Shown: positions 13,389 through 60,129, counted from the stretch's first letter. The stretch is DNA of 64,000 nt from Acidaminococcales bacterium (GCA_031551525.1 JAVBNN010000023.1:46442-110441); one strand, 5' to 3'. Notes: a model not told the origin generated them from the letters alone. Numbers and translations are program-made.

Positions 13389-13397
13389 ACTTTTACA

Positions 13398-13443
13398 TGG
13401 AGCCACCAACAGGAATTGAACCTGCGACCCACGCATTACGAAT
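13398..13443 (-). repeat. attL: displaced original 3' fragment of tRNA-Thr (anticodon loop to CCA)
   Basis: The reverse complement reads ATTCGTAATGCGTGGGTCGCAGGTTCAATTCCTGTTGGTGGCTCCA: a canonical T-arm (GCAGG-TTCAATT-CCTGT), acceptor 3' strand and encoded CCA. 41 of 44 nt are identical to 60129-60172. Confidence 0.9.
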
Positions 13444-14032: not shown

Positions 14033-14692
14033 TCACAGCATGGCCAGCAGATCTTTTTTCTCGTTTATAAAACGATCACGCAGGCCATTTTTGACAACAT
14101 CTTCGCTGCCACAGGTCCAGCGTTCCGGATCCCGCCAAACGCCGTTACCGCGATAGGTAGCAATCTCACAGCAGTAGCGCAAAAAGTTGTAGACGCCGGA
14201 TATAAGCATTTCGTCAAAATTCGGCGCGTCAATATAGGACAGGTTAAGGTAGCCTGGTTGCTTAAACCGCATGCCCTTTAAAAACAATTCCGGTACCCAC
14301 CCGGGGCCGTAATGCACGGCGCGGGAAAACACCATTTCCTTTACCGCGCCCGAGTGTTTGGCCACATCAAAATTGTGCTGGCGCAACAACTCTACCGCCG
14401 GATCGTAGTACATTTTTTGTGCGTACTCGTGCTGTAAGGCGAGAAATTCATCAGGGGCATTTCCCGCTATATGCCGCCACAAGTCGGAAAAGGCCGGTGT
14501 CCCGGGATGAAGATCGGCCAATAAACTGCCGAAAGAATGTTGTCTGTCCAGTAACCAATCGACAAAATCGTCCGCCACCGAAACAATAAACTGGTGAGCG
14601 CCGTAAGATATTCCACCCAGGTCACCAACGCCGGTCGATACCGCGCCAGGCCGGTTGCCGCTCTCATATTTCCCTGAAACACTACCTAACAT
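14033..14692 (-). CDS. Putative endolysin (lysozyme/chitosanase-like glycosidase fold)
   Basis: N-terminal YESGNRPGAVSTGVGDLGGISYGAHQF resembles the Glu...Asp-GG-x-S/T-YG catalytic pattern of lysozyme-fold muramidases. The gene overlaps the holin gene by 11 nt. Confidence 0.55.
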   Translation of the reverse strand: MLGSVSGKYESGNRPGAVSTGVGDLGGISYGAHQFIVSVADDFVDWLLDRQHSFGSLLADLHPGTPAFSDLWRHIAGNAPDEFLALQHEYAQKMYYDPAVELLRQHNFDVAKHSGAVKEMVFSRAVHYGPGWVPELFLKGMRFKQPGYLNLSYIDAPNFDEMLISGVYNFLRYCCEIATYRGNGVWRDPERWTCGSEDVVKNGLRDRFINEKKDLLAML

Positions 14693-16929: not shown

Positions 16930-18057
16930 TCACATAAAATCCGACGCCGTACCGGCGTCTATAACATCTACCTGCGTCTGATAAGCCCCGCCGCAATCAA
17001 TAAGCCCCGTAACCGGAGGCTGTCCGGGCGGCCCCGGCTCTCCCCGGTCGCCCTTGTCACCCTTTATTCCCTGCGCTCCAGTGTCGCCAATCGCGCCCCT
17101 TACACCCTGCGGCCCTTGCGGCCCCTGTGGCCCGGTCGCGCCTATGGAACCGGCGCCTCCCCTTTCTCCCGTCAGCCCTACTGGCCCGGGCGGGCCCTGC
17201 TGCCCTTGTGGGCCGGTCGCGCCGGTAGGCCCGTCCGCACCCTGAACACCCCCATCACCCTGTGTACCCTGCGGGCCGGTCGGACCGGGATCTCCCGGCT
17301 GCCCTCGCGGCACGCCAAACCATATCATATTGGTCTCCGGGTTGTAGATAGCCGACGGCCAGTCCTCGTGCGACACATCATAAGCGGCAGTAGACAACTT
17401 TTCCACATCAAGCGTTTCATCCCACAGACCGTTTCTGCGGCCATAAAGCTTCCCGTCTTCCGGCGCGTCCTTTACAGACGCTCCGGCCAACGCTATCGCC
17501 TCTCCCGCTATCTCTTTCGCCGCATCTGCCGTTTGTACCGCATACTCTATCCCGTCCGGGTTCGCCCCGTAGCGCAGCCCTGCGCCGTCATTCGTAACGG
17601 CGATACTCGCGCCCGGCTCTATAGGCGCCGGCAGCTCGGCATTAAAATCCTCGCTTACCGGAAATACTATAGCCCGGCCGACCTTCTCCCACAGTTGCTG
17701 GATCAGCATCGTGAGTTTGTCCGCCATCTTTTCAATGACTGGGAACGGCCAGCGGTCGCCGAGGTCTACCAGCTGCACCGGCGGCACCTCCCGGTAGAGT
17801 ACCAGCTTCCAGCCCGGCGGCAGTACCTCTGGCCGCTCGTTTTCCGGCGACTCCTCGCCCGGCGCATACCCCGGGTAAAACACCGACTTTTTCGCCATAT
17901 CGACGAAATAATTCTTGGCTAAAAGTTCCTCTTTCCCCTCCGGGTCTACCAGAAGCACCTTCACATGCTCTCTCTCGTGAAAATCGAACTGGCAGGGGAA
18001 CTCCACCGCCATCCCGTTGCCCTGGTAAACCACTTTCGTTAAAGTACCTGGTAACAT
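16930..18057 (-). CDS. Tail fibre protein with T7 gp17-like N-terminal attachment domain and C-terminal collagen-like region
   Basis: N-terminal pattern [18 protein letters not shown]...HVKVLLVD...YFVD...[17 protein letters not shown] resembles the T7 tail-fibre N-terminal domain. G-X-Y repeats span aa 252-347. Confidence 0.75.
17017..17304 (-). repeat. Collagen-like G-X-Y repeat region of proximal fibre
   Basis: [96 protein letters not shown]. Confidence 0.9.
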
Positions 18058-18095
18058 TTTTTACACCACCCCCTACATTTGAATTTGGGTATAAG

Positions 18096-18127
18096 AAAAC
18101 CACGTAGGCTAATCCCCACGTGGTTTT
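18096..18127. terminator. Intrinsic terminator downstream of the Bro-N gene, inside the late operon
   Basis: AAAACCACGT-12 nt loop-ACGTGGTTTT. The minus strand continues TTTTCTTATA. Confidence 0.7.
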
Positions 18128-18145
18128 GATATTTATTTATGTGGA

Positions 18146-18730
18146 TTAATTTTTCTTTGTGTGTTCGTAATGTAAATGGCTCGCGTTTGACGCCAAACAG
18201 TAAGCTATGGTTCTTAAAGTACCGGCCATTTCTATAAAAGTACCGCTAAAGCCTATCCCCTCATAAACCTCCAGCACCTTGATAAACGTCTGCGCCTTGT
18301 CTTTCATGTCTTTAGCCAGAACTTTTATGTCCTCCAGTTCGGTAGGCGAGACCAACGGTACAGGTTTCGGCAACATCGGCGTTGTCGGTACTGGCTGAAC
18401 TGGCGGTAAATTCAAGGTGTAGCTGCCGGTCTTTCTGATAGCCGGTATAACCTCGTGGGTTATCCAGCGTTTAAAGGCTTTGGCTTCGGGCTTACGACTA
18501 TAAAGAACAAGGTGATATAACCCATACTCATTAACTACTGCTAATTCTTGCTTGCCGCCAAGGGTGTGCATTGAACGCACACCCTTTTCATCTTCAGCTA
18601 GCCTGCGGGTTTGCGTTCGCTGTATACCGACGGCCTCACAAACATCATTAGCAACAAACCAAGTTTCGTCCTTCTCAACGATTGTACGAATTTTCTTTTT
18701 CTGAAAATCAAATACCCGCAAATTACCCAT
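18146..18730 (-). CDS. Bro-N domain protein (prophage antirepressor-like)
   Basis: FDFQKKKIRTIVEKDETWFVANDVCEAVGI...NEYGLYHLVLYSRKPEAKAFKRWITHEVIPAIRKTG is the Bro-N/antirepressor signature. ATG at 18730 has a GGGAGG RBS. Confidence 0.85.
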   Translation of the reverse strand: MGNLRVFDFQKKKIRTIVEKDETWFVANDVCEAVGIQRTQTRRLAEDEKGVRSMHTLGGKQELAVVNEYGLYHLVLYSRKPEAKAFKRWITHEVIPAIRKTGSYTLNLPPVQPVPTTPMLPKPVPLVSPTELEDIKVLAKDMKDKAQTFIKVLEVYEGIGFSGTFIEMAGTLRTIAYCLASNASHLHYEHTKKN

Positions 18731-18772
18731 AAATAAAAACCTCCCAAATTTTTGATTTGAAAGAGGTTTCCG

Positions 18773-18795
18773 CTGTGATATAATAGATTTCACAG
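18773..18795 (-). promoter_or_regulatory. Palindrome-flanked 15-nt motif AAATCTATTATATCA upstream of the Bro-N gene
   Basis: Minus strand reads CTGTGAAATCTATTATATCACAG. The identical 15-mer sits at 40796-40810 upstream of the Rha gene at a similar distance from the start codon. Confidence 0.55.
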
Positions 18796-18851
18796 AAGGA
18801 AACTTCTGGCGAATAGGGTTTCCCTAATGTCTTTGACCGGACGGGGAAACT

Positions 18852-18992
18852 CTATTTCTTTTTGCTATCAAGGTCTTTTTGAACAAGCGTAAGAATATAC
18901 TCTTTTAAAGAAAGTCCTCGCTTCGCGGCCTCTACCTTGATAGCCGTATGTTGTTCGCTTGTCACCCTGATAGTTATTGTTCTCTCTTCCAC
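18852..18992 (-). CDS. Ribbon-helix-helix (Arc/CopG-like) small DNA-binding protein, copy 1
   Basis: 46-47 aa, below the ORF-track cutoff: V(V)EERTITIRVTSEQHTAIKVEAAKRGLSLKEYILTLVQKDLDSKKK. GGAGGTGAA RBS. Paralogous to the 40595-40732 product (KEYILELIQKDL). Confidence 0.65.
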   Translation of the reverse strand: MEERTITIRVTSEQHTAIKVEAAKRGLSLKEYILTLVQKDLDSKKK

Positions 18993-19030
18993 CACTTCAC
19001 CTCCTTGTTTTGCAGTATATACTGCATTAC

Positions 19031-19082
19031 TGCAAAAGTCAAGAGGTTTTTATTTTATTAGTAACGTGGTATGATTATGACA
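19031..19082 (+). promoter_or_regulatory. Repeated promoter block, copy 1 (extended -10 TGGTATGAT)
   Basis: GCAAAAGTCAAGAGGTTTTTATTTTATTAGTAACGTGGTATGATTATGACAC is near-identical to 19736-19786. It is preceded by the palindrome TTTTGCAG-N14-CTGCAAAA. Confidence 0.65.
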
Positions 19083-19099
19083 CGGAAGGAAGTGGCAAT

Positions 19100-19447
19100 G
19101 TGGGATATCTTGTATACTTTGCAACAGCAAGCTACTTTTTATTGATGACCGACGATAATGGCCGCATAAATTGGCACGACAACGCAATATCTCTGCTTGG
19201 CTATTTCGCGATGTCCATGCTCTTTTTGTTCTGCCCTTCTTTATCGCTTTTCGCGGCAGTCTCCGGCATTGTATTTCTGTTGCCTTTCATTTCCAGTTTC
19301 CCATCGTCCTTCGCTGTGGGTTACTTTGCCGTCCTTATATTTTTTGCAGTTGCGGCATTCAGCACAAAAAAAGGCAATGTTTCTATTGCCGTCGTATACA
19401 CTGAACTTCGGAAGGAAATCTTGCAGAACATTAAAAGCTCCATATGA
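19100..19447 (+). CDS. Small integral membrane protein (moron, ~115 aa, 3 TM)
   Basis: GTG at 19100 has a GGAAGGAAG RBS 7 nt upstream. It lies downstream of the repeated promoter. The product is strongly hydrophobic and has no recognised family. Confidence 0.5.
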   Translation: MGYLVYFATASYFLLMTDDNGRINWHDNAISLLGYFAMSMLFLFCPSLSLFAAVSGIVFLLPFISSFPSSFAVGYFAVLIFFAVAAFSTKKGNVSIAVVYTELRKEILQNIKSSI

Positions 19448-19508
19448 CTAAAAGGAAACTTCTCGCCAGAATAAACAATCGCTTTATCTTTGACCGGATA
19501 GCGGTTGT

Positions 19509-19688
19509 TTATTTCTTTTTGTCCAGCTCAGACTTCACAAGATTAACCCCTTTTACAATTACTTCTGCTCGGGAAGTTTGTAACTGGTCTGCACACTCCT
19601 GTAAGGTTTTTGCAGTGTCTTGCGCTATTCTGATTTCCAGACGGATATTTTTAGGGTTATCTGTTGGCCTGCCTGTGCGTGGCGTCAT
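19509..19688 (-). CDS. Ribbon-helix-helix (CopG-like) small DNA-binding protein, copy 2
   Basis: 59 aa: MTPRTGRPTDNPKNIRLEIRIAQDTAKTLQECADQLQTSRAEVIVKGVNLVKSELDKKK. GAGGTGA RBS. Its 5' and 3' flanks are homologous to those of the 18852-18992 gene. Confidence 0.6.
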   Translation of the reverse strand: MTPRTGRPTDNPKNIRLEIRIAQDTAKTLQECADQLQTSRAEVIVKGVNLVKSELDKKK

Positions 19689-19735
19689 TTTATCACCTCA
19701 CTTTTGCCCGTGCTTAAATAATAATATATGCCCGT

Positions 19736-19786
19736 GCAAAAGTCAAGAAGTTTCTTTTTTATTAGTAATGTGGTATGATTATGACA
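19736..19786 (+). promoter_or_regulatory. Repeated promoter block, copy 2 (extended -10 TGGTATGAT)
   Basis: GCAAAAGTCAAGAAGTTTCTTTTTTATTAGTAATGTGGTATGATTATGACAC, preceded by ACTTTTGC...GCAAAAGT and a duplicated TGCCCGTGC. Confidence 0.65.
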
Positions 19787-19814
19787 CAATATAGTAAAGG
19801 GGGCGGATTGTTTA

Positions 19815-20555
19815 ATGAATACAGAACAAATTGCAATCACCGCTTTAACTGCTTTTACTACAACAATGGTAAGCAAAGGTGCAGATGCTCCTGCCCGAAC
19901 ACTGAATCTGCTATGGGAATTTATTTTTGGTAAATTTGACGCAATGATGCAAAACAGCATAAGCGCAAGACCCTATAACCTAACAAATTTTGGAAATAAA
20001 ATACACGAATTCACTAAAGACATCCCCCCCGAGCACATCCAAGAACCCGACCTTGCCATTATGGGCCCCGCCCTTGAAGCCTCAAAATATTACATTGAAA
20101 AAGAGCCTATCAGAAACGCGTTTGCAAAACTGATCGCGGCTTCATTCGATGCAAGAAAAAATGAAAGCACACATCATTCTTATGTTGAAATAATTAAACA
20201 GATGAACCCAAACGATGCAAAAATATTTACTAAACTTAAAAACCCATTTTATTTACTATGCTATAGTTTTTCTATAGAGTCACGCCCTTATATAAGACAA
20301 GATATTTATTTGGATGATTGCCACCAAGAGCCTAGTCTGGAAGATAGCATAGCAATTGGTAATCTGGAACGTTTAAATCTCATTGCCATTACAAGGCAAA
20401 GAGGCGGTATTACTACACACTATCCAGAAACACAAGAAATTATCACGCATTTTAAACAAACAAACCTCTATAAAACTTCTAAAGAAGAAATTATATTGGT
20501 CGAACAAGGGTTGCTTACTGAATACGGTTGGAACTTTAGACAGTGTTGTTTATAA
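19815..20555 (+). CDS. Abi-alpha (DUF4393)-like protein, candidate abortive-infection/exclusion factor
   Basis: Central block LAIMGPALEASKYYIEKEPIRNAFAKLIAASFDARKNESTHHSYVEIIKQMNPNDAKIF matches my recollection of the DUF4393/Abi_alpha core (..L...FA.LLA.A.D....HP.FVEII.QL.P.DA.IL). Confidence 0.5.
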   Translation: MNTEQIAITALTAFTTTMVSKGADAPARTLNLLWEFIFGKFDAMMQNSISARPYNLTNFGNKIHEFTKDIPPEHIQEPDLAIMGPALEASKYYIEKEPIRNAFAKLIAASFDARKNESTHHSYVEIIKQMNPNDAKIFTKLKNPFYLLCYSFSIESRPYIRQDIYLDDCHQEPSLEDSIAIGNLERLNLIAITRQRGGITTHYPETQEIITHFKQTNLYKTSKEEIILVEQGLLTEYGWNFRQCCL

Positions 20556-20675
20556 ATCTCTTATTTTTTCATAAATAAAATCCGCCATTTTCAGAGCTAA
20601 CCAGCCGCTTATCGTTACATTAACAACAGAACCTACAACCAATAGCCCAATTAAAAATACATATGTTTCTAACAT
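20550..20675 (-). CDS. 41-aa hydrophobic peptide (hypothetical)
   Basis: MLETYVFLIGLLVVGSVVNVTISGWLALKMADFIYEKIRDL. GAAGGTGAG RBS. Below the ORF-track cutoff, and convergent with the Abi-alpha gene with a 6-nt overlap. Confidence 0.3.
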   Translation of the reverse strand: MLETYVFLIGLLVVGSVVNVTISGWLALKMADFIYEKIRDL

Positions 20676-20748
20676 ATTCTCACCTTCTTTCATTAAATAT
20701 TATTATGTCGCGTCCCGCGTAAACGCGTGGCTTGAAATGGAGGCCCCT

Positions 20749-21105
20749 ATGAAAAAACTACTGCACATTTTCGCGCTGATAGATGTACAGCACATTTTAA
20801 TTTTAGCAACAGTTGCCCTTCTCTACGCGGGCATAATAGGCTTTGATGATATTAAGTATTATGGTTGGGTGCTGTATGGAGCCTCTATCGCATCTTTCTT
20901 TTTGTTCTTAAGCGGGAATTATCAGAGCGAACATAAGACAACCACAAGGGTTTTTCTCGGCTTGATAATGTCACTAAGCGGGCTATCTCTGTCGTTAGAA
21001 ACAGAAAGTATTGTTGGTTTTGAAAAAGTCTCGTTATTTTTCGCAGGCATCATGCTAGTGTTTCTATTGCAAGATATAAATAACGAAACCCCACCGCCCT
21101 GCTAA
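20749..21105 (+). CDS. Small integral membrane protein (moron, 118 aa, 4 TM)
   Basis: ATG at 20749 follows GGAGG with a 5-nt spacer. The product is hydrophobic throughout, and a terminator follows directly. Confidence 0.5.
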   Translation: MKKLLHIFALIDVQHILILATVALLYAGIIGFDDIKYYGWVLYGASIASFFLFLSGNYQSEHKTTTRVFLGLIMSLSGLSLSLETESIVGFEKVSLFFAGIMLVFLLQDINNETPPPC

Positions 21106-21117
21106 CTGCGGGGCGGT
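21093..21117. terminator. Bidirectional terminator between the membrane moron and the giant protein gene
   Basis: ACCGCCCTGC-taact-GCGGGGCGGT followed by TTTTCTTTT. Confidence 0.7.
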
Positions 21118-21123
21118 TTTCTT

Positions 21124-24100
21124 TTACCTCTCTCTTTTCGGCCGCCGCTTGGCCAAGTCCATAAACTCAAAGTCCATTTCGTCCTGTAAAAGATTCCACG
21201 CATTGAAAAACCAGTCATTTATCTGGTCCGGGTATTTGAGAAGGAAAGCCGATGCAGCCGCGATAGCCTCTGCCTTGTCCGCCGGCTCCGCGTCGTCTTT
21301 CATCATCTTTTGCCCGGCGCGGATGATTCCGCCGATCTGGCTTTCTAGCGGCGACATGGTATAACCGAAGGACTGGAAGCCGAGCGCCTGTTCTATGCCG
21401 ACTTTTATACCTGAGCCGATGAACGGCACCATGGCCAGCGGCCAGAGTGCTATCTCCTTGATAAACCATTCCAGATACTTGTCGTCGTCCGGCATTTTGA
21501 AGGAGTACAGCGCGGACAACACGCCGAAGCCGATATACTGTTTTGCCGTAAACACAAACAGCCGGCCGACGTCTTTTTTGTCCATGAAGATATTGGCTTC
21601 GCGCATCCAGCGGTTGAGCTGAGTATTGAAAAAGCCGGTGTACATGGTCAAAAGCCGCGTCCCGGAACCTCCTCTTTGCAGGCCGGAAGTGTCTATCAGG
21701 CGGCCGCTGCCGGTACTGCGCTCGATAACCGTATCGGCAAAGTGGACAGCGTCTTTCTCGGACATCTTCATGGACAGCGCCTTGTCGTAAGCCCCTAGCC
21801 ACATCGGAATGTCGGTCAGTTGGTCCGACCAGGCGAGTACATCGCCGCCCAGTTTTATCATCTGGTTTTGCGTCAGCTCTATCTTGATACCGGCCTCCTG
21901 TAATGCGCCGGTAGCGTTGCGGGAAAGTACGTTGCCCTCCTTCACCATACTTTGCAGCTCTCTCAGGGTAAAGTCCGGCGCATCCATTTTGTCGCGCATC
22001 ATCACCGACTTTTCAAATACAAAGGCGCGCAGCTCTTTGGCCCGCGCCGAATTTGTAATGGCCGCCGGTATGTAGTCGCCCACGCCACGCCTGGTGTACG
22101 CCTCGAAAGCGTCCATCTCCGTAAAGCCATTTACCGCATTGCCATACAGGGTAAAGTTGGCGTTGTTCTGTACTATCGTCCCCGGCCGGAACAACAGACC
22201 GGCCGTCACCGTCCGCGCGCGCATCCAGTTCAAAAGCGGAGCCATCCAGTTTTTCACCGGGGCCGTATCCCGCCCGCGCGCCACTGCACCCTGCCAGTCT
22301 ACTATTGCCTTGTACCCTTCCTCGCCCAGCTTATGCCGGAGGGTGTCGCGCACTTCCTCCTTGCGCATCAGTTTGTTTATATCGTGCATGACCGGACGGA
22401 AGGCTATGTCCTGCGTCACCTGTTCCAGATGGTTAAAGGCATTGTTGAAGTCAAGGTCTACCGAGTAGCTGGCCTTCGTCCTTGTTTTGGAGGCCCCGCT
22501 GTTCGGGTAGGGCATGACACCGACAAAGTCGCCCAGCGCCTTTTCTGCGTTGAGTTCTGCCTGCAAAGTCGAACGCCGGTCTTGCTTTAACGGATAATAG
22601 CCGCCCTGCAAAACTATTGTGTTGCCGTCCGGCAGGGTAAATTCCACCGGCATGGCTTCCACCTTCGGCAGAGAAAAGCCGGTCATTTTCGTGACCATCT
22701 CGTTATACGGAGTGTAAAGATTTATGGCATTCCAGATATCCTGCACCAGGTGGAAGTCTTTTTCGGTCAGGTACTTGGCCAGCACTTCTTTTATTTGCGG
22801 CTCTGTCCAGTTGGCTTGTTTCCATGCCAATGACTGGTTGAAGCCGACGGGGGCTTGGCTGACGAGCCGTTCCATATTGGATTCACTGCCCATATTGAGC
22901 GCGATCACCCGCATGTCCATCTTGGATAGCGACACATCCCATTCCGGAATATATTTTTTGTTATTTACATCCCGGTACTTTTGGGCGTTGTCTATGCCGG
23001 CGCGCTTGAAAGCCTCGTCCAATTTCGTGCTGGACTTGCGCAAAAGGTCGCTTTTGTAGTCGGCCGCTTCTTTGACATAGCGGTAAAAGGCTGTGTGCCA
23101 GGGGCCAAAGTCTTTCATGCCGTCTAGTTCGAGCAGTATCTCGGTCACTTTTTTATTGCCTAGGTAGATCTCTTTTATCATCCTGGTCACCGGGCTGGTC
23201 GCCCCTACCGCCCCCGCTTCATCCCGCAGTACATCCTCCATCCTCGCGGATACTTCCATTAACTTTCGCGCCAGTTCGCTGGACGAGCCGCCATTGTCGA
23301 TAACCGCGAAAGCGTCGCTGTTCACGCCTATCCGGTCGATCATCCTGATGTTCCTGATGGCGTTGGCCACGTCCTTATACTGTTCGATGGTCAGTTCGGC
23401 GCGCGCGTTGGGCGCCTCGGTGTCCGCCTCCAGCCACTCGGCTATGCTGATGATGTCGGGATTGCTGCCCGGCATGTTCAGGTTTTCCTGCCTCGCCACA
23501 TAAGCCATCAGGCTTTCTCTTTTCAGCGCCGGGTTGTAGTCGCTGCGCCCCATACCGAAGCGGCGCAAGAGATCGGCCGCCTGGACGAAGTTCGTTTCCA
23601 TGTCCCAGTTGGCCTTTTTCCTGTTGCGCTGGCGCTGGAGGTATTTCTTTATGCCGTCGTATTCCCGGCGCACCCGGAGGCTTTCCTGTACCATGGCGTG
23701 ATTGTACAACTGGAGTTTTTTCTGCTCAAGCGCGATATCCAGGTCGCCATTGGCCAGCGCGACGGCCGACTTCTCGGCGGCCTTTCTTTCGGACGATATG
23801 TAGGTCTGCAAGTTGCTGGCCCGGTCGATGGTCATTTGACTTATTGCTTCTTTGGCGGCCAGTTTGGCGTAACGCTTATTCATCTGTGCTATTACTTGGT
23901 CGCCTATCTTCATCGGGCTTTGGTGCGTCATTTCGTGCAGCTTGTCCTCGATGATGGCCAGCTCCAAAGCCATCAGCTCCGCCCCGTACTCGTTGTACAT
24001 GGCCTGCTTGGCTTCTTCGGCGAAAACCGCCTTATTGTCGTATACGCCGTCAAACTCTGCCTTGATGAAAGTGTCCGTCATGTGGGTAGCCGCTTTGTTG

Positions 24101-27411: not shown

Positions 27412-29607
27412 TTAATCGCCGCGCCGCCAATTGTCCGTAAACATGCCGCGTATTTTATCGTAACTGCTTTTTGTCAGAGGTATGCCTTCATCAAGGCAAT
27501 GGTCAAGTGCCGCTTGCGCGGTCGGGTCGCCTTTCGCGTTGGCTGTGGATATTTGAGCCGCTATATAGCTGGAAGTTTTATTCAACTCCTGCCCGCTGCC
27601 GCCAGTTCCCTCTGTAAGCGCACCGCGTTTGAGCAGTTCACCAACCTCGCCCCCACGCGCCCCCCATGAATTCACCATGACGTTGTATTCTCGGCTGCTG
27701 TGCTGGTAATACTCTGTGTGTATGGTGGGAGTGGCTTTTTCATCTTTCAGCCACTGCCGAACTTTGTCTTGCCTTTCCCACCCCTGGACATTTTCCTGAT
27801 CCAGACGCAGCTTTGCCATAACAGCAAACCGCTCTTTGACCGCCTTTGTTTTGGGGTCGCTGTATTGTGCGTTCACATCTACAAACCAAGCTTTGTCGAT
27901 TTGATTATTTAAGTCGTTGGCTTCGTCTTTGCGAGTTTTACCTGCATCCTTGCTATACTTCAAAAAGTCTTTATCGCTCAAAGCCCCTTGTTTGAATAGC
28001 ATCTCCACATCGTCCTGTTGGAGCTGCCCGTTTATTGCTAATGTATCTAAGCGGTACAAAGCCGCTGTCTCGCTGCTTTCTCTTTTCGGCTTTGTTAGCA
28101 GTTCGGTTTTTAAGCCTTTCAGCCTCATACGGGTATGGTCGTCATAAGAGTACCTGCTGACTACATCCGCCGACGCTGTCTCGTCAAAAATACCCGCCTC
28201 GCGCAGTTTGAAAAGCTCCACCATTCCGTTTTGGTACGCCTCGTTACGCTTAAAGTTGCGAGCGCTGATTTCGCTGCCGAGTTTTGCACTGTATTTTTTG
28301 CGGAAGTCCTCTGTTTCAAGCGCGCCTAGGCTTCTTCCTGTTTTGCCGCCCTCAAAAGGAATTCGGCTGAACCCGGCTATCTCACCGATAGCGTCCATAT
28401 CCGCGTCTTTGATAACCTTCCCATAGCCGGAACTGGCGTGCATTAATTTGCCGTTGCCCTGATAAATACCAGCATGAGTTATTCCCTTATATGCTTCGCC
28501 CGCCTGACTAGACGTGTTACAGTAATAAACTATATCGCCCGGTTGGAGCTGGCTGCGATCAGTAAAGGCGATCCCTTTGTCTTCGGCTACTTTGTACATA
28601 TCATCGACTGTCCGCAGGTTTGTAGTCTCGTACCCTGCCGCAGTAGCCGTTCTTTCGATAAACTTACCGCAATCAGTGGAGCTTTTCCCGTCTCCCCCCA
28701 ACACGTAGGGAATACCTAGTTGACTTTCCGCCGCTCGCATAAAGTCCTTGTCACCGCTGCCGGACTTTGTTGCCTTGGCCGACCAAGCTTTTACCGCGCC
28801 GTCAACATCATCACCATAAATAGCGTACAGGCTATTTATGTCTTGCATACCTTGCTCCGCCTCCCGGCAGTCGTTTAGCCGCGAGGTAACCTTCGACAAC
28901 CGGGCAACGTCCACTTGCTCCTTGAACTCATCATACACAGCCTGCGCTCCGGCGTAGTCCTTCTTGTCCGTCAGGTCTAACATCAGAACCCCCACCAATT
29001 CAGTCGCGCTGTCCTTATCGAGGGCCTTTATATAATCCTGCCCTTTGTTTCGTCCATAAATAGCATTACTTATCTTCATCTGGCCGAGAGCATTTTGCGC
29101 TGTCTCCTTGCCGAGCAGCACCTTATCCCTAAGTGCGCCGTTGCTTTCGTTGCGAACGAGTAGCCCGTGTTTATCCATCTCTCCCGCCTGGTAGCGGCTC
29201 AGCACCTTGAGATTGCCGGTAACACTGCGGTCAGCCATATTATTAAAAGCCCGCTGCGCTTTTTCGTAGCGCAGGCCACTTTCACCCCATACTTTCTGAC
29301 GGATTTTCGCTTCTTTCTCGGCGAACTCTTTATCAATGTCGATCGTCTTATCAAGCTGGCGGCTCAATAAATCAGTGTTGACAACATTTATCTGCCGCTC
29401 ATATTCGTTACTGGCCTCCATGACCTTGAGCGCCAGGTCGTTCTCCATCTGGCGCTGTTGCTCCGCGCCGACGAGCGCCAACCCTTGCGCCACCGCCCCC
29501 ATCGCCCGACCCATCCCCGCGCCGTAAGCGGCTGCATTGCCCGGCGCGCGTACCTGTCCTTGCGCCACATTCGGGTCGACCGCCCGGCTATAAGATTGCA
29601 TTTTCAT
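27412..29607 (-). CDS. Internal virion protein with NlpC/P60 cell-wall endopeptidase domain
   Basis: aa ~289-405 (28393-28743): QLGIPYVLGGDGKSSTDCGKFI...GDIVYY...GITHAGIY...LMHAS has the NlpC/P60 Cys-His signature. It lies between other core-protein genes. Confidence 0.8.
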   Translation of the reverse strand: MKMQSYSRAVDPNVAQGQVRAPGNAAAYGAGMGRAMGAVAQGLALVGAEQQRQMENDLALKVMEASNEYERQINVVNTDLLSRQLDKTIDIDKEFAEKEAKIRQKVWGESGLRYEKAQRAFNNMADRSVTGNLKVLSRYQAGEMDKHGLLVRNESNGALRDKVLLGKETAQNALGQMKISNAIYGRNKGQDYIKALDKDSATELVGVLMLDLTDKKDYAGAQAVYDEFKEQVDVARLSKVTSRLNDCREAEQGMQDINSLYAIYGDDVDGAVKAWSAKATKSGSGDKDFMRAAESQLGIPYVLGGDGKSSTDCGKFIERTATAAGYETTNLRTVDDMYKVAEDKGIAFTDRSQLQPGDIVYYCNTSSQAGEAYKGITHAGIYQGNGKLMHASSGYGKVIKDADMDAIGEIAGFSRIPFEGGKTGRSLGALETEDFRKKYSAKLGSEISARNFKRNEAYQNGMVELFKLREAGIFDETASADVVSRYSYDDHTRMRLKGLKTELLTKPKRESSETAALYRLDTLAINGQLQQDDVEMLFKQGALSDKDFLKYSKDAGKTRKDEANDLNNQIDKAWFVDVNAQYSDPKTKAVKERFAVMAKLRLDQENVQGWERQDKVRQWLKDEKATPTIHTEYYQHSSREYNVMVNSWGARGGEVGELLKRGALTEGTGGSGQELNKTSSYIAAQISTANAKGDPTAQAALDHCLDEGIPLTKSSYDKIRGMFTDNWRRGD

Positions 29608-40435: not shown

Positions 40436-40455
40436 TCCCACCACCCCAAATAAAA

Positions 40456-40477
40456 AACCGCCCCTTTCGGAACGGTT
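40456..40477 (-). terminator. Promoter-proximal intrinsic terminator just upstream of terS
   Basis: Minus strand reads AACCGTTCC-GAAA-GGGGCGGTT followed by TTTTTTATTT. It lies ~20 nt downstream of the TGGTATATT promoter and ~15 nt upstream of the terS start. Confidence 0.6.
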
Positions 40478-40499
40478 GTGTGTAAATCTCTACGATACC

Positions 40500-40534
40500 A
40501 ATATACCACACAAGAGTGTGCGGAAGTGTGCGGA
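40500..40534 (-). promoter_or_regulatory. Candidate late promoter: extended -10 TGGTATATT with tandem TCCGCACACT repeats in the -35 zone
   Basis: Minus strand reads TCCGCACACT TCCGCACACT cttgtg TGGTATATT. There is no -35 hexamer, so the tandem 10-mers probably form an activator site. Confidence 0.5.
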
Positions 40535-40542
40535 CTTTTTTC

Positions 40543-40571
40543 TTGACCTTTACACTATTTCGTGTTATAGT
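40543..40571 (+). promoter_or_regulatory. Sigma-A promoter with overlapping palindromic operator for the RHH-Rha operon
   Basis: TTGACC, 17-nt spacer, TATAGT, with a TG at -15/-14. The palindrome TACACTAT-N8-ATAGTGTA covers the spacer and -10. Confidence 0.7.
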
Positions 40572-40594
40572 GTAATCGTGGAGGTGATGAAACG

Positions 40595-40732
40595 ATGCCC
40601 GATAAAAATATCGGGTTCAAGGTCGATGAAGAGCTTTATAGACGCATTAAAATACACATAGCACGTAAAGGTAAAACGCTAAAAGAATATATTTTAGAGC
40701 TAATTCAAAAAGACCTTGAAAACGACAAATGA
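40595..40732 (+). CDS. Ribbon-helix-helix (Arc/CopG-like) small DNA-binding protein, copy 3
   Basis: 45 aa: MPDKNIGFKVDEELYRRIKIHIARKGKTLKEYILELIQKDLENDK. GGAGGTGA RBS. Below the ORF-track cutoff. Confidence 0.7.
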   Translation: MPDKNIGFKVDEELYRRIKIHIARKGKTLKEYILELIQKDLENDK

Positions 40733-40790
40733 GAAAGTAGCCGCCCCTCCAGCAAGAGAATAAGCGGCTACCTCACAGCACCAGCCGAGG

Positions 40791-40811
40791 CTGATAAATC
40801 TATTATATCAG
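40791..40811 (+). promoter_or_regulatory. Palindrome-flanked 15-nt motif AAATCTATTATATCA upstream of the Rha gene
   Basis: CTGATAAATCTATTATATCAG. The same 15-mer occurs at 18776-18790 (minus strand) upstream of the Bro-N gene. Confidence 0.55.
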
Positions 40812-40848
40812 CATTGGCTTGGTGTATCAACTTTAAAGGTGGTGCACT

Positions 40849-41394
40849 ATGACAAATTTATTAAAAACAAAAACTACTTTTACTTTGGACAGCCGCGAAG
40901 TTTCTAAAATGGTAGATAAAAGACATGATAATTTATTAAGAGATATCACAGGGTATAGTACAATACTAGCAAATTCTAGTGCCCTCAAAATTGAGGTGAC
41001 TGATTTTTTCCAAGACAGTGTGTATTTTGATGAACAAGGCAAACCTCGGCCTTGCTATAAAATCACTAAAAAGGGTTGTGAATTGATTGCCAATAAATTG
41101 ACTGGCAAAAAAGGAATATTGTTTACAGCCGCCTACGTCACCAAGTTTAACGAAATGGAATCTGGCAAAAATAACGTACTCCCCAGCCAGTCCGACATTG
41201 ACCGCGAGACCGAACGTCTAGTAAAAGCCGTCCGCGATCAAGCCGCGCTAATGGCAAAAGCTGCCGAAGCCTATCTTGAATACAACGATCAAAGTACAAA
41301 AAAGGCTTCGTTAAAGCTTCTAGGCTTTTTCGGTGTTGATGTCTGGGGCGCCTTTTGTAAACTTAGCAAGCACGAAGAAAACTACACGACCTAA
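40849..41394 (+). CDS. Rha family phage regulatory protein
   Basis: LDSREVSKMVDKRHDNLLRDI...CYKITKKGCELIANKLTGKKGILFTAAYVTKFNEME is the Phage_pRha signature. Confidence 0.85.
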   Translation: MTNLLKTKTTFTLDSREVSKMVDKRHDNLLRDITGYSTILANSSALKIEVTDFFQDSVYFDEQGKPRPCYKITKKGCELIANKLTGKKGILFTAAYVTKFNEMESGKNNVLPSQSDIDRETERLVKAVRDQAALMAKAAEAYLEYNDQSTKKASLKLLGFFGVDVWGAFCKLSKHEENYTT

Positions 41395-41426: not shown

Positions 41427-41834
41427 TTATTGGATAAGCCCCTCAAAATACAACAGCGCCCGCGAATGCAGTTCGTGTATGCGTCTATAACTGTAATGCA
41501 TTTCCAGCGCAATTTCCTCCCACTTTTTATAATTGACATACCGCAAAGTCAACAGCCGCCGGTAATCCAATACCTCCAACGCGTCAATCCGTCCGATTAT
41601 TTCCGCTTCCAGCTCCGCCAGCCTTAGCTCGTCCAGCGCCAGCCTTACCTCCAGGTCACATATCTTTGCAACAGCCGCACTCATACGATCCCCCCCGCTC
41701 TGTGCCCTTGGCTCGAAACTCAAGCGGTTGTTACAGCTGACCGCGCGTTCCCGTAACTGTGCTATCTTTTCTTTCTTGGCCCGGATAAGCCCCTGTAAAT
41801 GATAACACCGCCGCAAATACTCTTTGGCTGTCAT
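41427..41834 (-). CDS. Putative late-gene transcriptional regulator (sigma-70 region 4-like HTH; DUF1492/ArpU-RinA-like)
   Basis: C-terminus RRLLTLRYVNYKKWEEIALEMHYSYRRIHELHSRAL is a region-4 type HTH. It is the last gene of the early/middle operon before the packaging genes. Confidence 0.55.
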   Translation of the reverse strand: MTAKEYLRRCYHLQGLIRAKKEKIAQLRERAVSCNNRLSFEPRAQSGGDRMSAAVAKICDLEVRLALDELRLAELEAEIIGRIDALEVLDYRRLLTLRYVNYKKWEEIALEMHYSYRRIHELHSRALLYFEGLIQ

Positions 41835-52849: not shown

Positions 52850-52904
52850 TATTTTTCACCTCCTATATTTTGATGGTATAATCACCTTATGAAAGGAGGT
52901 GATT

Positions 52905-53399
52905 ATGATGGACGAGAAAGATTTTTTGAATCTCTTCATATCTCTGTTGGCATCGGTAATTTTCACATTATTTGTGTATGAACATTTAAAGAAAAACCTG
53001 GAAGACGCCTATATTGGTATTGCGGAAGAATGCATTAAAAATTTTGATTTACCAGAAGATACTTCGCCTGCGAAAATACTCCGTTTTGCTTATTTCATTT
53101 TTTCCGGTATTCTTTTTGTAATCTACGTAAAGACCCCTACGCTTTTGATGCCTGTAATCTTTGCAATACCGGCTGCTGTCATCTCACCGCCGATAATATT
53201 GCTTATATTGGTTATTTTTGCTTTTTCCATTTGGCACACATTGGCGTTTCTTTTTGATCTGATTTTATTTGTCGCATATGTGCCCAGTAAAATGTATCGC
53301 GATCGTGAAAACCCCAGTATTAAGCAGTTTAGAATGTTTGTAAGCTATTTGATGGTGTTAGTTTTTATTTGGGGTATCATCTGGGGTTACCTTAAATAA
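52905..53399 (+). CDS. Integral membrane protein (moron, ~164 aa)
   Basis: Perfect extended -10 TGGTATAAT at 52874-52882 and an AGGAGG RBS. 4-5 TM segments. Opposite strand to the early operon. Confidence 0.6.
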   Translation: MMDEKDFLNLFISLLASVIFTLFVYEHLKKNLEDAYIGIAEECIKNFDLPEDTSPAKILRFAYFIFSGILFVIYVKTPTLLMPVIFAIPAAVISPPIILLILVIFAFSIWHTLAFLFDLILFVAYVPSKMYRDRENPSIKQFRMFVSYLMVLVFIWGIIWGYLK

Positions 53400-53540
53400 C
53401 GCAATCATTTTCTTTTTCACTTCCGGCGCTTCGTCGACCAGCATCTTTACAAAGTACCAAGCCAAAAAAAGAAAAAGTTGAAACCAAACTAAAGATAAAA
53501 GAAATAAAAATATTTCCATTAACACAGTATTGTCCTTCAC
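53358..53540 (-). CDS. Small membrane protein (hypothetical; start uncertain)
   Basis: Hydrophobic core IFLFLLSLVWFQLFLFLAWYF. Several candidate starts (GTG 53540, GTG 53525, ATG 53519). Confidence 0.3.
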   Translation of the reverse strand: MKDNTVLMEIFLFLLSLVWFQLFLFLAWYFVKMLVDEAPEVKKKMIALFKVTPDDTPNKN

Positions 53541-53608
53541 CTCCTATGCCGTAGTTTTGGTTTGTATATGGTATAATCTATCTGTGAAGCCCCTGGAAAG
53601 AAGGCACA

Positions 53609-53800
53609 ATGCTGTTTAGCTACTACACTCTTGGCCTAACCCCCGAAGCCGTAAAGGCTTTGGTAGCAAACCTTAAAGCAGAAGGCAAGTCTACCGAAGA
53701 AATCATTGTCGAAGTTGTAAGCCAAAACAACCAGGATATTAACGCCAATCTCCGCTCCACCCTTCAATCCTTTGAAGATGAAATAAGAAAACTCCGATAA
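53609..53800 (+). CDS. 63-aa hypothetical protein (moron)
   Basis: Own extended -10 TGGTATAAT at 53569-53577 and a GAAAGAAGG RBS region. Confidence 0.45.
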   Translation: MLFSYYTLGLTPEAVKALVANLKAEGKSTEEIIVEVVSQNNQDINANLRSTLQSFEDEIRKLR

Positions 53801-53812
53801 CCGCGAGGGGCT

Positions 53813-54028
53813 TCACTTTGCACTAAGCACCGCATTAAAATCGCCCTTTTTCAAAATGCAGGTAATTTTTACCATCTCGCCGTCAGCCGAATCCTCAACA
53901 AAAGATACATTCAAATCCTCAACACTGGTGCGCTTTGCCACAAGCTGCCAGTCCTTTTTTTCTAAAGGCGACTTTTCCACCTTGACACTGCCTGCCCATC
54001 GCCCCTGCGTTAACATCTCAACTTTCAT
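53813..54028 (-). CDS. 71-aa hypothetical early protein
   Basis: Directly downstream of the cro-like gene. No motif recognised. Confidence 0.45.
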   Translation of the reverse strand: MKVEMLTQGRWAGSVKVEKSPLEKKDWQLVAKRTSVEDLNVSFVEDSADGEMVKITCILKKGDFNAVLSAK

Positions 54029-54041
54029 ATTCTCTCTCCTT

Positions 54042-54269
54042 TCAGGCCGTAGTTTTTGCTTGTTTTAACAAATCATTTTTGTTGTTTTCGGCAAAAAAAA
54101 GTAACTCCACTGAAAACCCTGAGTCTTTAGAAATTTCTTTCATAGTCTTTACTGGTGGATTTACCTTACCCTGTTCCCAGTTACTCCAAGTTTGTTGAGT
54201 TACATTGTATTTGTCTGCCATTTCTTGTTGGCTGCGATCTCCGCGATACTTGACTAACATAAAGTTCAT
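54042..54269 (-). CDS. Cro-like XRE-family HTH regulator
   Basis: RSQQEMADKYNVTQQTWSNWEQGKVNP is an HTH_3 motif. Divergent from the repressor gene. GAGGTGA RBS. Confidence 0.8.
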   Translation of the reverse strand: MNFMLVKYRGDRSQQEMADKYNVTQQTWSNWEQGKVNPPVKTMKEISKDSGFSVELLFFAENNKNDLLKQAKTTA

Positions 54270-54290
54270 TTTGCTGTCACCTCGCTTTCA

Positions 54291-54421
54291 ACAAATTTAA
54301 TTTGTTAAGACAAGATTAACACAAATTATTTTTGTTGTAAATAGTTTTTTCACAAATTATTTTTGTGGCTTTCTTTTCACAAATATTTTTTGTATAATAC
54401 AAGTATACAAATTATTTTTGT
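54291..54421. promoter_or_regulatory. Genetic-switch operator array: five 15-bp ACAAAT(T)ATTTTTGT sites
   Basis: Sites at 54291-54305 (ACAAATTTAATTTGT), 54321-54335, 54352-54366, 54379-54393 and 54407-54421. A TATAAT lies at 54393-54398, facing the repressor gene. Confidence 0.75.
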
Positions 54422-54436
54422 TAGGGTGTGTGTATT

Positions 54437-54799
54437 ATGGATTTAGATAGAACGGCCGTTGCAACGGCTCTCAAAAAACTAAGAGAAGAAAAGGAAATGT
54501 CCCAGCAGGAGTTAGCAAATATGCTTGGCAAGACACAGCAGGCTGTCGATGCTTGGGAGCGTGGCCTTGCTGTGCCCGCGCCTAATATGCTTTCGCGCAT
54601 GGCTACTATTTATGATGTTTCCGTAGACTACCTTCTTGGCCGCACCATTGTCCGGCGGCCTATTGAAACTACCGCTGCACATATGACGGACATCGACGGC
54701 GAATTGACGGACACGGAAGAGGCTAGTCTACGGGCATATCTGGCTATTATGCGCCAGCAGGCAAAAGACAAACAGGCGAAACTGCCGCCGGAGAAATGA
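54437..54799 (+). CDS. CI-like XRE-family repressor (no S24 peptidase domain)
   Basis: MSQQELANMLGKTQQAVDAWERGLAVP is an HTH_3 motif. ~120 aa with an acidic C-terminal extension. Confidence 0.8.
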   Translation: MDLDRTAVATALKKLREEKEMSQQELANMLGKTQQAVDAWERGLAVPAPNMLSRMATIYDVSVDYLLGRTIVRRPIETTAAHMTDIDGELTDTEEASLRAYLAIMRQQAKDKQAKLPPEK

Positions 54800-54902
54800 A
54801 CATACACAAAAAATTATGCGAAATGCAGAGAAAAAGTGCAAAAATGACACTTAAAGCTTAATAAATTAACTTAAAGGCATAAAAAACTACTCTTTTCGCT
54901 TT

Positions 54903-54931
54903 ATGACAACAACAATCAAATATGTTACAAT
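54903..54931 (+). promoter_or_regulatory. Strong promoter of the Abi_2 gene
   Basis: ATGACA, 17-nt spacer, TACAAT, with a TG at -15/-14. Confidence 0.65.
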
Positions 54932-54982
54932 GGTCGCAGAGAGATCTGGGAATGAGTTCATACTCACACCCCCAGGCCAACG

Positions 54983-55013
54983 ATAGCCCCTGTACCATTG
55001 GTACGGGGGCTAT
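54983..55013 (+). promoter_or_regulatory. Stable leader hairpin (attenuator or terminator-like) upstream of the Abi_2 RBS
   Basis: ATAGCCCCTGTACC-att-GGTACGGGGGCTAT (14 bp, one G-U) followed by TCGTCTTTCT and then the GGGAGG RBS. Confidence 0.5.
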
Positions 55014-55036
55014 TCGTCTTTCTGGGAGGTTTTATT

Positions 55037-55987: not shown

Positions 55988-56006
55988 AAACATTGGAGCT
56001 TTTACT

Positions 56007-56465: not shown

Positions 56466-56489
56466 ATACTATACAAAGGGGCTAACAAG

Positions 56490-57044: not shown

Positions 57045-57060
57045 AGAAAGGATCCCCGCC

Positions 57061-57243
57061 ATGATGTTCCCTAAAAAACCAAAATCGCCAGTCCTGCCAG
57101 TTGACCCGGCAGATATTGACGAGCTGGAACGAAGCGTCGTTTCAATAAACGGCAAGCCATACACTGAGACAAGCGAAAAAGAAAAAGCCGCGCTCCGTGA
57201 AGCGCTGGCTGATGAGTGGAGGAAGTATCCGAATAAGGAATAA
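57061..57243 (+). CDS. 60-aa hypothetical protein
   Basis: ATG with an AAAGGA RBS region. The product is hydrophilic and Pro/Glu/Lys-rich. Confidence 0.4.
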   Translation: MMFPKKPKSPVLPVDPADIDELERSVVSINGKPYTETSEKEKAALREALADEWRKYPNKE

Positions 57244-57353
57244 AAAAATTTTGTGGAATATTTTATTGGTTTTTTAAAGTACTAGTTTTCGCCCCAACCG
57301 CTATTTTAGGCCCTTTTTATTGGTTTTTTATTGGTTTTCATTTACAAAAAGGA

Positions 57354-60110: not shown

Positions 60111-60129
60111 CGAAACCTTGAAGGCATTG

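Follow-up and report, generated by a model that had tools for sequence, protein, structure and literature searches.

The 64,000-nt stretch of Acidaminococcales bacterium DNA analysed here (GCA_031551525.1, JAVBNN010000023.1:46442-110441, hereafter the window) contains, at 18096-21122, an island of small genes in mixed orientation that splits the late operon of a prophage. All coordinates are positions in the whole window, and (+) and (-) refer to the strand as shown. An ORF scan recovers the seven open reading frames (ORFs) that the first-pass annotation had listed. On the minus strand, which is that of the late operon, are a gene for a Bro-N protein of 194 residues (18146-18730), the genes of two ribbon-helix-helix (RHH) proteins, RHH1 (47 residues, 18852-18995) and RHH2 (59 residues, 19509-19688), and an ORF for a 41-residue peptide with a single transmembrane (TM) helix (20550-20675). 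The plus strand encodes an Abi-alpha family protein of 246 residues (19815-20555), which is a candidate abortive-infection gene, and two hydrophobic ORFans of 115 and 118 residues, TM115 (19100-19447) and TM118 (20749-21105), both probably multi-pass membrane proteins according to hydropathy. Five of the seven ORFs (Bro-N, TM115, RHH2, Abi-alpha and TM118) match public gene calls in length. The 41-residue peptide and RHH1 are called in the locus L001, where RHH1 has 46 residues. A plausible ribosome-binding site is present for every gene.

Two intrinsic terminators bracket the island, as proposed earlier, and both fold far below shuffled sequences (z about -5.6). The terminator at 18096-18127 (-) ends the RHH1-bro unit, with a folding energy of -21.5 kcal/mol (z -5.6) followed by UUUUCUU, and its plus-strand version is weaker (z -2.1). 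The one at 21093-21117 (+) closes the plus-strand genes with a 10-bp stem, eight pairs of which are GC, and a U tract (-22.0 kcal/mol, z -5.7), while its minus-strand version is weak and lacks the U tract. A repeated promoter, also noticed in the first pass, proves to be a 53-nt direct repeat at 19031-19083 and 19735-19787 with 92% identity. The G+C content of the island is 40.2%, compared with 60.4% in the fibre genes and 53.2% in the gene of a giant protein on its other side. A 14-nt inverted repeat found at both ends was considered as a transposition signature and discarded, as about 0.9 such repeats are expected by chance according to our estimate and both copies are terminator tails.

The prophage is about 46.7 kb long (~13.44-60.13 kb) and is integrated in tRNA-Thr. 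At its ends, ~45 nt from the 3' half of tRNA-Thr are imperfectly duplicated (13396-13443 and 60129-60172, attL/attR), and the integrase gene is located at one end (58896-60050). The minus-strand late operon encodes TerS, TerL, the portal, a protease/scaffold, the major capsid protein and tail tubular proteins A and B, followed by internal virion proteins, a 731-residue NlpC/P60 protein, the giant internal-virion/ejection protein of 2089 residues, the island, two collagen-repeat fibres, a holin and an endolysin. Among phage proteins, the giant protein is most closely related to Bbp10 of Bordetella phage BPP-1 and to its kin; using the C-terminal 999 residues as query, the identity to the BPP-1 counterpart is 24% over 84% of the query. 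The order tail tubular proteins, internal virion proteins, giant protein, fibres, lysis genes and att is also that of BPP-1 (Rauchvirus). In contrast to the window, BPP-1 has no island between bbp10 and bbp9, and further downstream it carries an mtd/diversity-generating retroelement cassette that is absent from the window prophage. The phage, for which a Firmicutes podovirus was first suggested, is BPP-1-like rather than P22-like. Judged from six related prophages, from Veillonellaceae, Sporomusa, Phascolarctobacterium, another Negativicutes and one Bacilli metagenome-assembled genome, the host is probably a Negativicutes. Single-protein scans of IMG/VR with the giant protein and with Abi-alpha found no close relatives.

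Of the nine related sequences that we compared, eight have the fibre gene immediately after the giant gene, at a distance of 4-150 bp (BPP-1, Cobetia phage Carin1, two metagenomic relatives with ~50% identity, and prophages L015, L016, L018 and L019), and therefore we consider the island an insertion. Among the informative Negativicutes/Bacilli prophages, four out of five have no island in this slot. The exception, L020, is a prophage of Phascolarctobacterium faecium DSM 14760 and holds there a different low-G+C island of 3.6 kb (L020 11781-15377), with genes for a signal-peptide protein, a 160-residue ORFan, an RHH-antisense RNA-Rha unit, a 79-residue ORF and a KilAC (ANT) protein. Its RHH protein is 36% identical to RHH2 and is followed by the Rha-type and KilAC-type antirepressor genes. 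On these comparisons the window island is a foreign, horizontally acquired insertion at a re-used slot, and it has the marks of a moron: its own promoter and terminator, a deviant composition and absence from related phages.

RHH1 is the first gene of the RHH1-bro operon. Its Pfam matches to ParD (30.7 bits, cut-off 27.3) and to the NikA-like family (29.4 bits, cut-off 27) are both above the cut-off, and it matches phrog_582, "Arc-like repressor", at 3e-4; a tblastn search against phage records gave no match. Downstream, after a spacer of 121 nt with no sense-strand terminator, lies the Bro-N gene. The Bro-N (PF02498) match of its product is strong (75.2 bits against a cut-off of 25.6, 6.7e-21), with residues 13-96 spanning the whole profile, and among PHROG families it matches those named "anti-repressor Ant", the best at 9e-44. 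Homologues are present in more than 1000 phage records, and the listed ones are mostly annotated as antirepressors. There is also a weak, sub-threshold match to the N-terminal domain of P22 Ant (P22_AR_N, E 0.02).

The RHH1-bro spacer is predicted to contain a unit that the first-pass annotation did not describe, a cis-antisense RNA similar to sar of phage P22, with promoter, two hairpins and terminator at 18757-18864 (+). The promoter, TTGAAA-16-TGaTATAAT (18757-18784), has 11 of 12 consensus positions plus an extended -10 and is the best promoter match of the region. From a start at ~18791 the predicted RNA is ~73 nt long, and it consists of a 6-bp hairpin 1 (18793-18808) and a long terminator hairpin (18811-18858) with a U tract to 18863, which overlaps the RHH1 stop codon (18852-18854). 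The unit folds at -31.3 kcal/mol, z -4.9 against shuffles, and contains no ORF of at least 35 codons. No Rfam family matches 18757-18864 at E <=1, and the only match within 17500-21700 is a chance Phe_leader at the 21093 terminator. The U tracts of this and two other antisense terminators described below (18859-18863, 19514-19521 and 40735-40745) are complementary to the C-terminal, lysine-rich codons of the respective RHH gene, so that one set of bases encodes both the tail of the RHH protein and the terminator of the antisense RNA.

Upstream of RHH1 is a divergent control region (18996-19099) with the predicted RHH1 promoter on the minus strand (-35 at 19042..19037, -10 at 19019..19014) and an outward promoter. 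A perfect 16-bp palindrome, TGCAGTATATACTGCA (19011-19026), spans the -10 of the RHH1 promoter, and a third half-site is found at 19028-19034. At the other end of the spacer, the Shine-Dalgarno sequence of bro, GGGAGG (~18740-18745, start codon at 18730), is located in a predicted hairpin with a probability of being unpaired of 0.03. In the sense mRNA, the 5' arm of this hairpin is the complement of the antisense -35 region.

RHH2 belongs to a different family, characterised by the motif GRPx(S/T)DNPK, and has no detectable similarity to RHH1. It matches phrog_876, "transcriptional repressor", at 1e-13, with Pfam RHH_1 at 17.6 bits below its cut-off of 20.5. It is 43% identical to a phiCD211 gene annotated as "RHH, copG family", and its identity is 36-47% with the RHH genes upstream of antirepressors in L020, phiPaco, phiCD211 and Javan phages. 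RHH2 is 0.5 kb from RHH1, in the same orientation and with its own operator, and its flanks are the same 5' and 3' sequences as those of RHH1. On its 3' side, at 19452-19521 (+), is a homologue of the antisense-RNA element, in which the direct repeats D2 and D10 match 18796-18864. No promoter was detected for it; it folds at -20.5 kcal/mol (z -3.3), ends in a U tract, overlaps the RHH2 stop codon (19509-19511) and serves as the predicted terminator of TM115. On the 5' side is a second divergent control region (19689-19814) with the predicted minus-strand promoter of RHH2 (-35 at 19746..19741, -10 at 19723..19718), flanked by the direct repeats GCCCGTGC at 19706-19713 and 19730-19737. The RHH control region of L020 has the same layout with other repeats (GGCAGAC twice).

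An Mnt-like role for RHH2 beside RHH1, as proposed in the first pass, does not hold. Because of the shared flanks, the promoterless antisense element and the absence of likeness to RHH1, we regard RHH2 not as a counterpart of Mnt but as the remnant of a truncated second cassette. The outward promoters of both control regions lie within the 53-nt repeat and face TM115 and Abi-alpha, respectively. They have a weak -35 and the extended -10 TGgTATGAT, located at 19067-19075 (extended) in copy 1, with the -10 at 19774-19779 in copy 2. Through the duplicated promoters and the cassette-derived terminator that the cargo genes use, the parts of the island are physically integrated.

A complete paralogous cassette, RHH3-antisense RNA-Rha, adjoins the terminase small subunit gene at 40543-41394 (+). 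It consists of an RHH3 promoter (40543-40571) with the inverted repeat ACACTAT/ATAGTGT over the -10, RHH3 (40595-40732, 42% identity to RHH1) and a Rha antirepressor-type gene (40849-41394, Pfam Phage_pRha 8e-25). Its predicted antisense promoter is on the minus strand at 40830..40802, with 11 of 12 positions, and the RNA, reaching to ~40738, folds at -33.8 kcal/mol (z -3.9). Module 1 can be aligned with module 3 over the full length, with a shared 15-nt stretch around the antisense -10, while the operators and the RNA stems differ. In fact, each module has a private repeat motif over or around the -10 of its RHH promoter: TGCAGTATATACTGCA with a third half-site in module 1, GCCCGTGC twice in module 2, ACACTAT/ATAGTGT in module 3 and GGCAGAC twice in L020. 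Such motifs fit a model where each promoter would be repressed by its cognate RHH protein.

The antisense arrangement is not limited to the window. The RHH-antirepressor spacer of L020 has it, and in Fusobacterium phage phiPaco, C. difficile phage phiCD211 and Streptococcus phage Javan190 an antisense unit is found after an RHH2-family gene inside the structural operon. The downstream cargo in these three phages is a Rha, Bro-N or ANT "antirepressor" gene, which follows directly after 122 nt in phiPaco and phiCD211, with one small ORF intervening in Javan190. For a wider survey, RHH2-family genes were collected from IMG/VR and metagenomes with a back-translated pattern. The genes fall into two groups. 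Short spacers (33-44 nt) are found before Tn916-type integrases, and one out of 35 contains an antisense unit. Long spacers (~107-190 nt) precede Bro-N, Rha, ANT, DUF6809 or satellite genes, and 19 out of 31 contain the unit, compared with none on the sense strand and 0.6% of dinucleotide shuffles. In the long spacers without a detected unit the hairpins are mostly present and the promoter is weaker. According to Pfam, the cargo downstream of the cassettes is mostly Bro-N, Rha or Bro-N+KilAC(ANT).

We also scanned with a descriptor that requires a promoter, the two hairpins and a U tract. It matches the 64-kb window exactly twice, both times in an RHH-antirepressor spacer, and never in 20 shuffles. 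In 1.36 Mb of fetched loci it is found at 22 distinct places, 21 of which adjoin a small upstream ORF, nearly all of RHH type. All 19 antisense RNAs fold to one two-hairpin shape with unrelated stem sequences, and in two close homologues, aligned by sequence, four stem pairs carry compensatory double substitutions. A stem-anchored alignment gives 100% pairing by construction; it is circular and was not used as evidence. Tandem RHH-antisense RNA cassettes are also present in L024 (Javan190) and L053, i.e. the duplication is not unique to the island.

Abi-alpha is the cargo gene with the clearest identity. The first-pass assignment to an Abi-alpha/DUF4393-like family is confirmed, the protein being a bona fide member of PF14337 (130 bits against a cut-off of 29, 1.4e-37) with residues 53-245 aligned to positions 3-196 of the 196-position profile. 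It further matches PADLOC PDC-S47 (PDLC05025) at 2.1e-33, which is an unvalidated candidate system, and phrog_2232 at 3.6e-55. The nearest homologues have 40-46% identity and are located either in defence islands, next to CBASS-, Thoeris- (ThsA-like) or AAA_15/DUF4276-type genes, or in the immunity region of prophages. No RHH gene was found in these neighbourhoods, and a conserved RHH-Abi-alpha pair was ruled out on this ground. In the L009 prophage, which has the same replication module (VapE, PolA, Enc34 ssDNA-binding protein, DUF2800), Abi-alpha is in the immunity region by the repressor and cro-like genes and not in the late operon. The founder of the family, EF2833 of E. faecalis V583 prophage 6, blocks a Picovirinae phage by premature lysis (PMC6356687). 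Like EF2833, the window protein is a prophage-encoded, single-gene member of PF14337. It differs in being fed by a cassette-derived promoter and in being probably co-transcribed with a membrane ORFan. An abortive-infection phenotype is known for EF2833 in E. faecalis only, and for the window protein it is a prediction.

For TM115, no homologue was found among 5.8 billion proteins, and for TM118 an exhaustive HMMER search gave just two marginal matches at 3e-4. Neither has a Pfam, PHROG or PADLOC match below the library thresholds. TM115 has its own promoter, ribosome-binding site and terminator. TM118 is located directly after the ejection-protein gene on the opposite strand, which is the position of sieA in P22. 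Its own promoter match is weak (9 of 12 positions), and as no terminator was found between Abi-alpha and TM118, these two genes probably form one transcript that ends at 21093-21117. The putative 41-residue peptide gene, an ORF with a ribosome-binding site, is on the late strand, antisense within this probable transcript. The peptide has one TM helix according to hydropathy and a weak match to phrog_17665 (0.0018). One TM helix with a charged tail is the shape of a type I toxin; the ORF may be spurious, or the locus may be organised like a type I toxin-antitoxin system.

The terminators constrain how the late operon can be expressed. The one at 18096-18127 ends 33 nt upstream of the start codon of the tail fibre (18057), leaving no room for a promoter. 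Expression of the fibre, holin and endolysin genes must pass this terminator, and therefore read-through or antitermination is needed. The first-pass annotation had asked for either antitermination or a separate promoter; the former stands, while the latter finds no space before the fibre start codon. At the other end, late transcripts can enter the island because the 21093-21117 hairpin has no U tract on the late strand. In the opposite direction this terminator is predicted to shield the giant gene (stop codon at 21124) from antisense transcription. The stretch 40444-40509, upstream of the whole operon, contains an extended -10 on the minus strand, TGTGGTATATT, and behind it an intrinsic terminator (40477..40456) that immediately precedes the start codon of TerS; just upstream, 41427-41834 encodes a 135-residue protein with a weak match to sigma-70 region 4. 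Taken together, this looks like a late promoter with a tR'-like terminator and suggests an antitermination-type system or a dedicated late factor.

In the annotated record of P22, the junction between gene 16 and gene 9 contains sieA (-), orf59a (-), mnt (-), arc (+), sar (-), ant (+) and a terminator. The P22 gene order invoked in the first pass is correct, the analogy with sieA and immI is upheld in position and architecture, and the window island is a foreign insertion in the equivalent slot, after the last ejection-protein gene and before the gene of the receptor-binding protein, with a size of 3.0 kb against 2.7 kb in P22. In both phages a membrane protein gene on the opposite strand follows right after the ejection gene, an RHH repressor gene and an antirepressor-type gene form, in this order, one operon on the late strand, and a terminator precedes the fibre or tailspike gene. 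Both also have a two-hairpin antisense RNA of ~70 nt, predicted in the island, with its terminator over the stop codon of the RHH gene; sar itself has 70 nt, two hairpins and a terminator over the arc stop codon. As for the proposed parallel between the RHH and antirepressor genes and immI, the RHH1-Bro-N order and the predicted antisense RNA support it, while a face-to-face RHH pair is absent. A second repressor of the Mnt type, whose operators overlap those of its Arc-like partner, is missing: RHH1 is divergent from TM115, and each RHH gene of the island faces a cargo gene. In the island, unlike in P22, the antisense promoter is in a ~120-nt spacer upstream of the Shine-Dalgarno sequence, so that the RNA leaves the ribosome-binding site uncovered and the Shine-Dalgarno sequence is in a hairpin of its own. 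Further differences are the duplication of the cassette, the addition of Abi-alpha and a second membrane ORFan, and the BPP-1-like phage with a probable Negativicutes host.

At the sequence level, BLASTP finds no match with E <0.3 between the island proteins and those of P22, including Arc, Mnt and Ant, and TM115 and TM118 match SieA at E >=2. The statement that the two systems are unrelated in sequence is in this respect upheld; it goes too far in that the RHH class is common to the island proteins and Arc/Mnt and the Bro-N protein has the weak P22_AR_N match (0.02). The island is a variation on a known theme, the immI/sieA layout of P22, set in a BPP-1-like prophage, made from the portable cassette and loaded with Abi-alpha and two membrane ORFans.

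Two other systems show a related logic. The immI locus of phages P1 and P7 has the order c4 antisense RNA-icd-ant. It resembles the island in the RNA-level lock on an antirepressor and in private specificity (heteroimmunity; review PMC12197685). It differs in that c4 arises by processing of the same transcript and has its sites of action upstream of ant, without an RHH repressor or a separate antisense promoter. The second system is the copy control of Gram-positive plasmids, where the controlled gene is a replication initiator and not a phage antirepressor-type gene as in the island. In these plasmids (copG-RNAII-repB of pMV158, CopR-RNAIII of pIP501, attenuation in pT181) a small repressor works together with a constitutive cis-antisense RNA, whose coding sequence separates the repressor gene from the controlled gene. 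CopG is itself an RHH repressor, and control is exerted through access to the ribosome-binding site or through attenuation; the lock that we propose resembles copG-RNAII-repB and pT181.

According to our model, which we give a probability of about 0.6, the island is a 3.0-kb acquired moron island made of a portable regulatory cassette in two copies and of cargo genes, in a BPP-1-like prophage, where cassette 1 would be a working analogue of P22 arc-sar-ant and the cargo would protect the lysogen. RHH1 would repress its own promoter through the palindrome over the -10, a constitutive antisense RNA of ~73 nt would pair with the RHH1-bro spacer, and the Shine-Dalgarno sequence of bro would be held in its hairpin. 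With these three locks in place, the antirepressor-type protein would stay silent, except after a fresh introduction of the unit or when antiterminated late transcription runs over it. Occlusion of the Shine-Dalgarno sequence is predicted across the modules: its accessibility is low, from 0.00 to 0.63, and once the antisense target is masked it either drops (from 0.63 to 0.00 in Javan190 and from 0.31 to 0.05 in phiCD211) or is unchanged within 0.01. The back-to-back outward promoters of the 53-nt repeat would drive TM115, and Abi-alpha probably together with TM118 up to the 21093-21117 terminator. Expressed from the prophage, the cargo would protect the lysogen, Abi-alpha by premature lysis or abortive infection as in the founder of its family, and the membrane proteins possibly by blocking DNA entry. 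The outward-facing terminators would insulate the island, while the fibre and lysis genes would depend on read-through. The model starts from the anatomy of the island, the family memberships, the insertion and the conservation of the antisense unit, from which we infer each of its regulatory and phenotypic steps.

Several points weigh against this model. All promoters, operators and the antisense RNA of the island are predictions, and the two-hairpin consensus structure was not recovered by RNAalifold on MAFFT alignments. The mode of action of the RNA is uncertain, as it leaves the ribosome-binding site of bro uncovered, unlike sar, and the Shine-Dalgarno sequence of module 1 is predicted to be closed with or without the RNA (0.03 and 0.02). 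The Bro-N proteins are a mixed group, in which the name "antirepressor" comes largely from annotation. Control of Abi-alpha by RHH2 is doubtful, because the Abi-alpha homologues elsewhere have no RHH neighbour. No link was found between the ORFans TM115 and TM118 and a known exclusion protein; such a role would follow solely from their being small membrane proteins in a moron position. Finally, the outward promoters share a GTGGTAT extended -10 with the putative late promoter, and because of this common motif the cargo, whose expression in the lysogen we infer, may instead be expressed late.

The strongest competing explanation is that unrelated morons have been heaped up at a recombination-permissive junction. 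The likeness to P22 would then reflect a common permissive site and not a common function, and the membrane proteins would have no part in exclusion; they could serve in lysis timing or host fitness, or be non-functional ORFs. This would account for the entirely different content of the same slot in L020, for the RHH-antirepressor cassettes elsewhere in the late operons of other phages, for the ORFan status of TM115 and TM118 and for the Abi-alpha homologues that stand alone in many contexts. Against it speak the promoters and the terminator that the cargo has taken from the cassettes, the plausible ribosome-binding site of every gene, the strength of the outward terminators and the presence of an antirepressor cassette in this slot in two of the compared prophages. 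We consider a mere heap of morons unlikely, and find it slightly harder still to believe that the Bro-N protein is not an antirepressor but a DNA-binding regulator or a host-takeover/kil-type protein, so that the lock would guard a toxic or regulatory gene and not a second immunity region. The Bro-N match is confined to the N-terminal 96 residues, no Pfam family matches residues ~100-194, and similar cassettes also carry DUF6809 proteins and genes of Streptococcus satellite phages. On the other hand, most cassettes carry Bro-N, Rha or Bro-N+KilAC(ANT), which are annotated antirepressor classes, and the HTH_3 repressor candidate of the prophage at 54428-54799, which has no peptidase domain, fits induction that depends on an antirepressor.

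It is very improbable that each RHH gene forms a toxin-antitoxin pair with its divergent neighbour, the RHH protein being the antitoxin and the membrane or Abi protein the toxin, even though the best Pfam matches of RHH1 are the antitoxin families ParD, HicB and TacA and the concepts of Abi and toxin-antitoxin systems overlap. The genes are divergent and not co-transcribed, RHH1 heads an operon with Bro-N, and the RHH2 family is found elsewhere before antirepressors or integrases and never before toxins. Moreover, no toxin domain was found in Pfam, PADLOC and PHROG scans, and the Abi-alpha homologues have no RHH neighbours. A type II toxin-antitoxin reading was rejected on the layout. We give equally little credit to the proposal that the antisense RNA is a bidirectional terminator beside a fortuitous promoter-like sequence. 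The copy in cassette 2 does act, by prediction, as a terminator without a promoter, and the antisense transcript is itself predicted; yet near-consensus extended -10 promoters are found at an equal distance in unrelated sequences from several bacterial phyla, and the descriptor is absent from the shuffles and from the rest of the window.

Beyond the island, we see an even chance that the RHH-antisense RNA-antirepressor cassette is a widespread undescribed unit of phages and satellites in Firmicutes, Negativicutes and Fusobacteria. It would be structurally analogous to P22 arc-sar-ant and act as an orthogonal "second immunity" plug-in for late operons, with a private operator and private stems in each copy, and in the island its outward promoter and terminator would have been re-used for defence cargo. 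In the literature that we covered, which is incomplete, and in a 2025 review of phage small RNAs, the RNA regulators of antirepressors are limited to sar, c4 and 24B_1, and none comes from a Gram-positive phage. Nor does this literature describe such a cassette in the phages of Gram-positive bacteria, although an earlier description is possible. If the predictions hold, the immI logic, in which an RHH autorepressor and a countertranscript guard an antirepressor in a late operon, is a recurrent portable design and not an enterobacterial curiosity. It would recur in distant phage lineages, among them phages of gut Negativicutes, C. difficile and Fusobacterium and streptococcal phages and satellites, and would provide a simple sequence signature for antirepressor switches as well as an unannotated small-RNA family. 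The cassettes would also be seen to seed the expression of defence genes in prophages, here Abi-alpha. The island itself offers a short list of candidate defence and exclusion genes in a poorly studied phage-host group.

Some other features of these loci deserve mention. In the metagenome loci L042-L154, an RHH gene with the GRPxSDNPK motif lies 33-44 nt upstream of Tn916-type tyrosine integrases (~413 residues) without an antisense unit, where it is presumably an excisionase-like or regulatory partner. In the window prophage, the 731-residue internal virion protein (27412-29607) has its NlpC/P60 domain where BPP-1 has a lytic transglycosylase, and the endolysin candidate (14033-14692) matches the VgrG3-like C-terminal (peptidoglycan hydrolase) domain. 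The lysogeny side, 52900-60050, is an island of low G+C (35-40%) that includes the HTH_3 repressor candidate and the integrase. An Abi_2 protein (Pfam 1e-42) is encoded at 54998-55987 and a Schlafen/AlbA_2 + HATPase_c_4 protein at 57354-58877. With Abi-alpha, Abi_2 and the Schlafen-like protein, the prophage carries at least three candidate defence genes.

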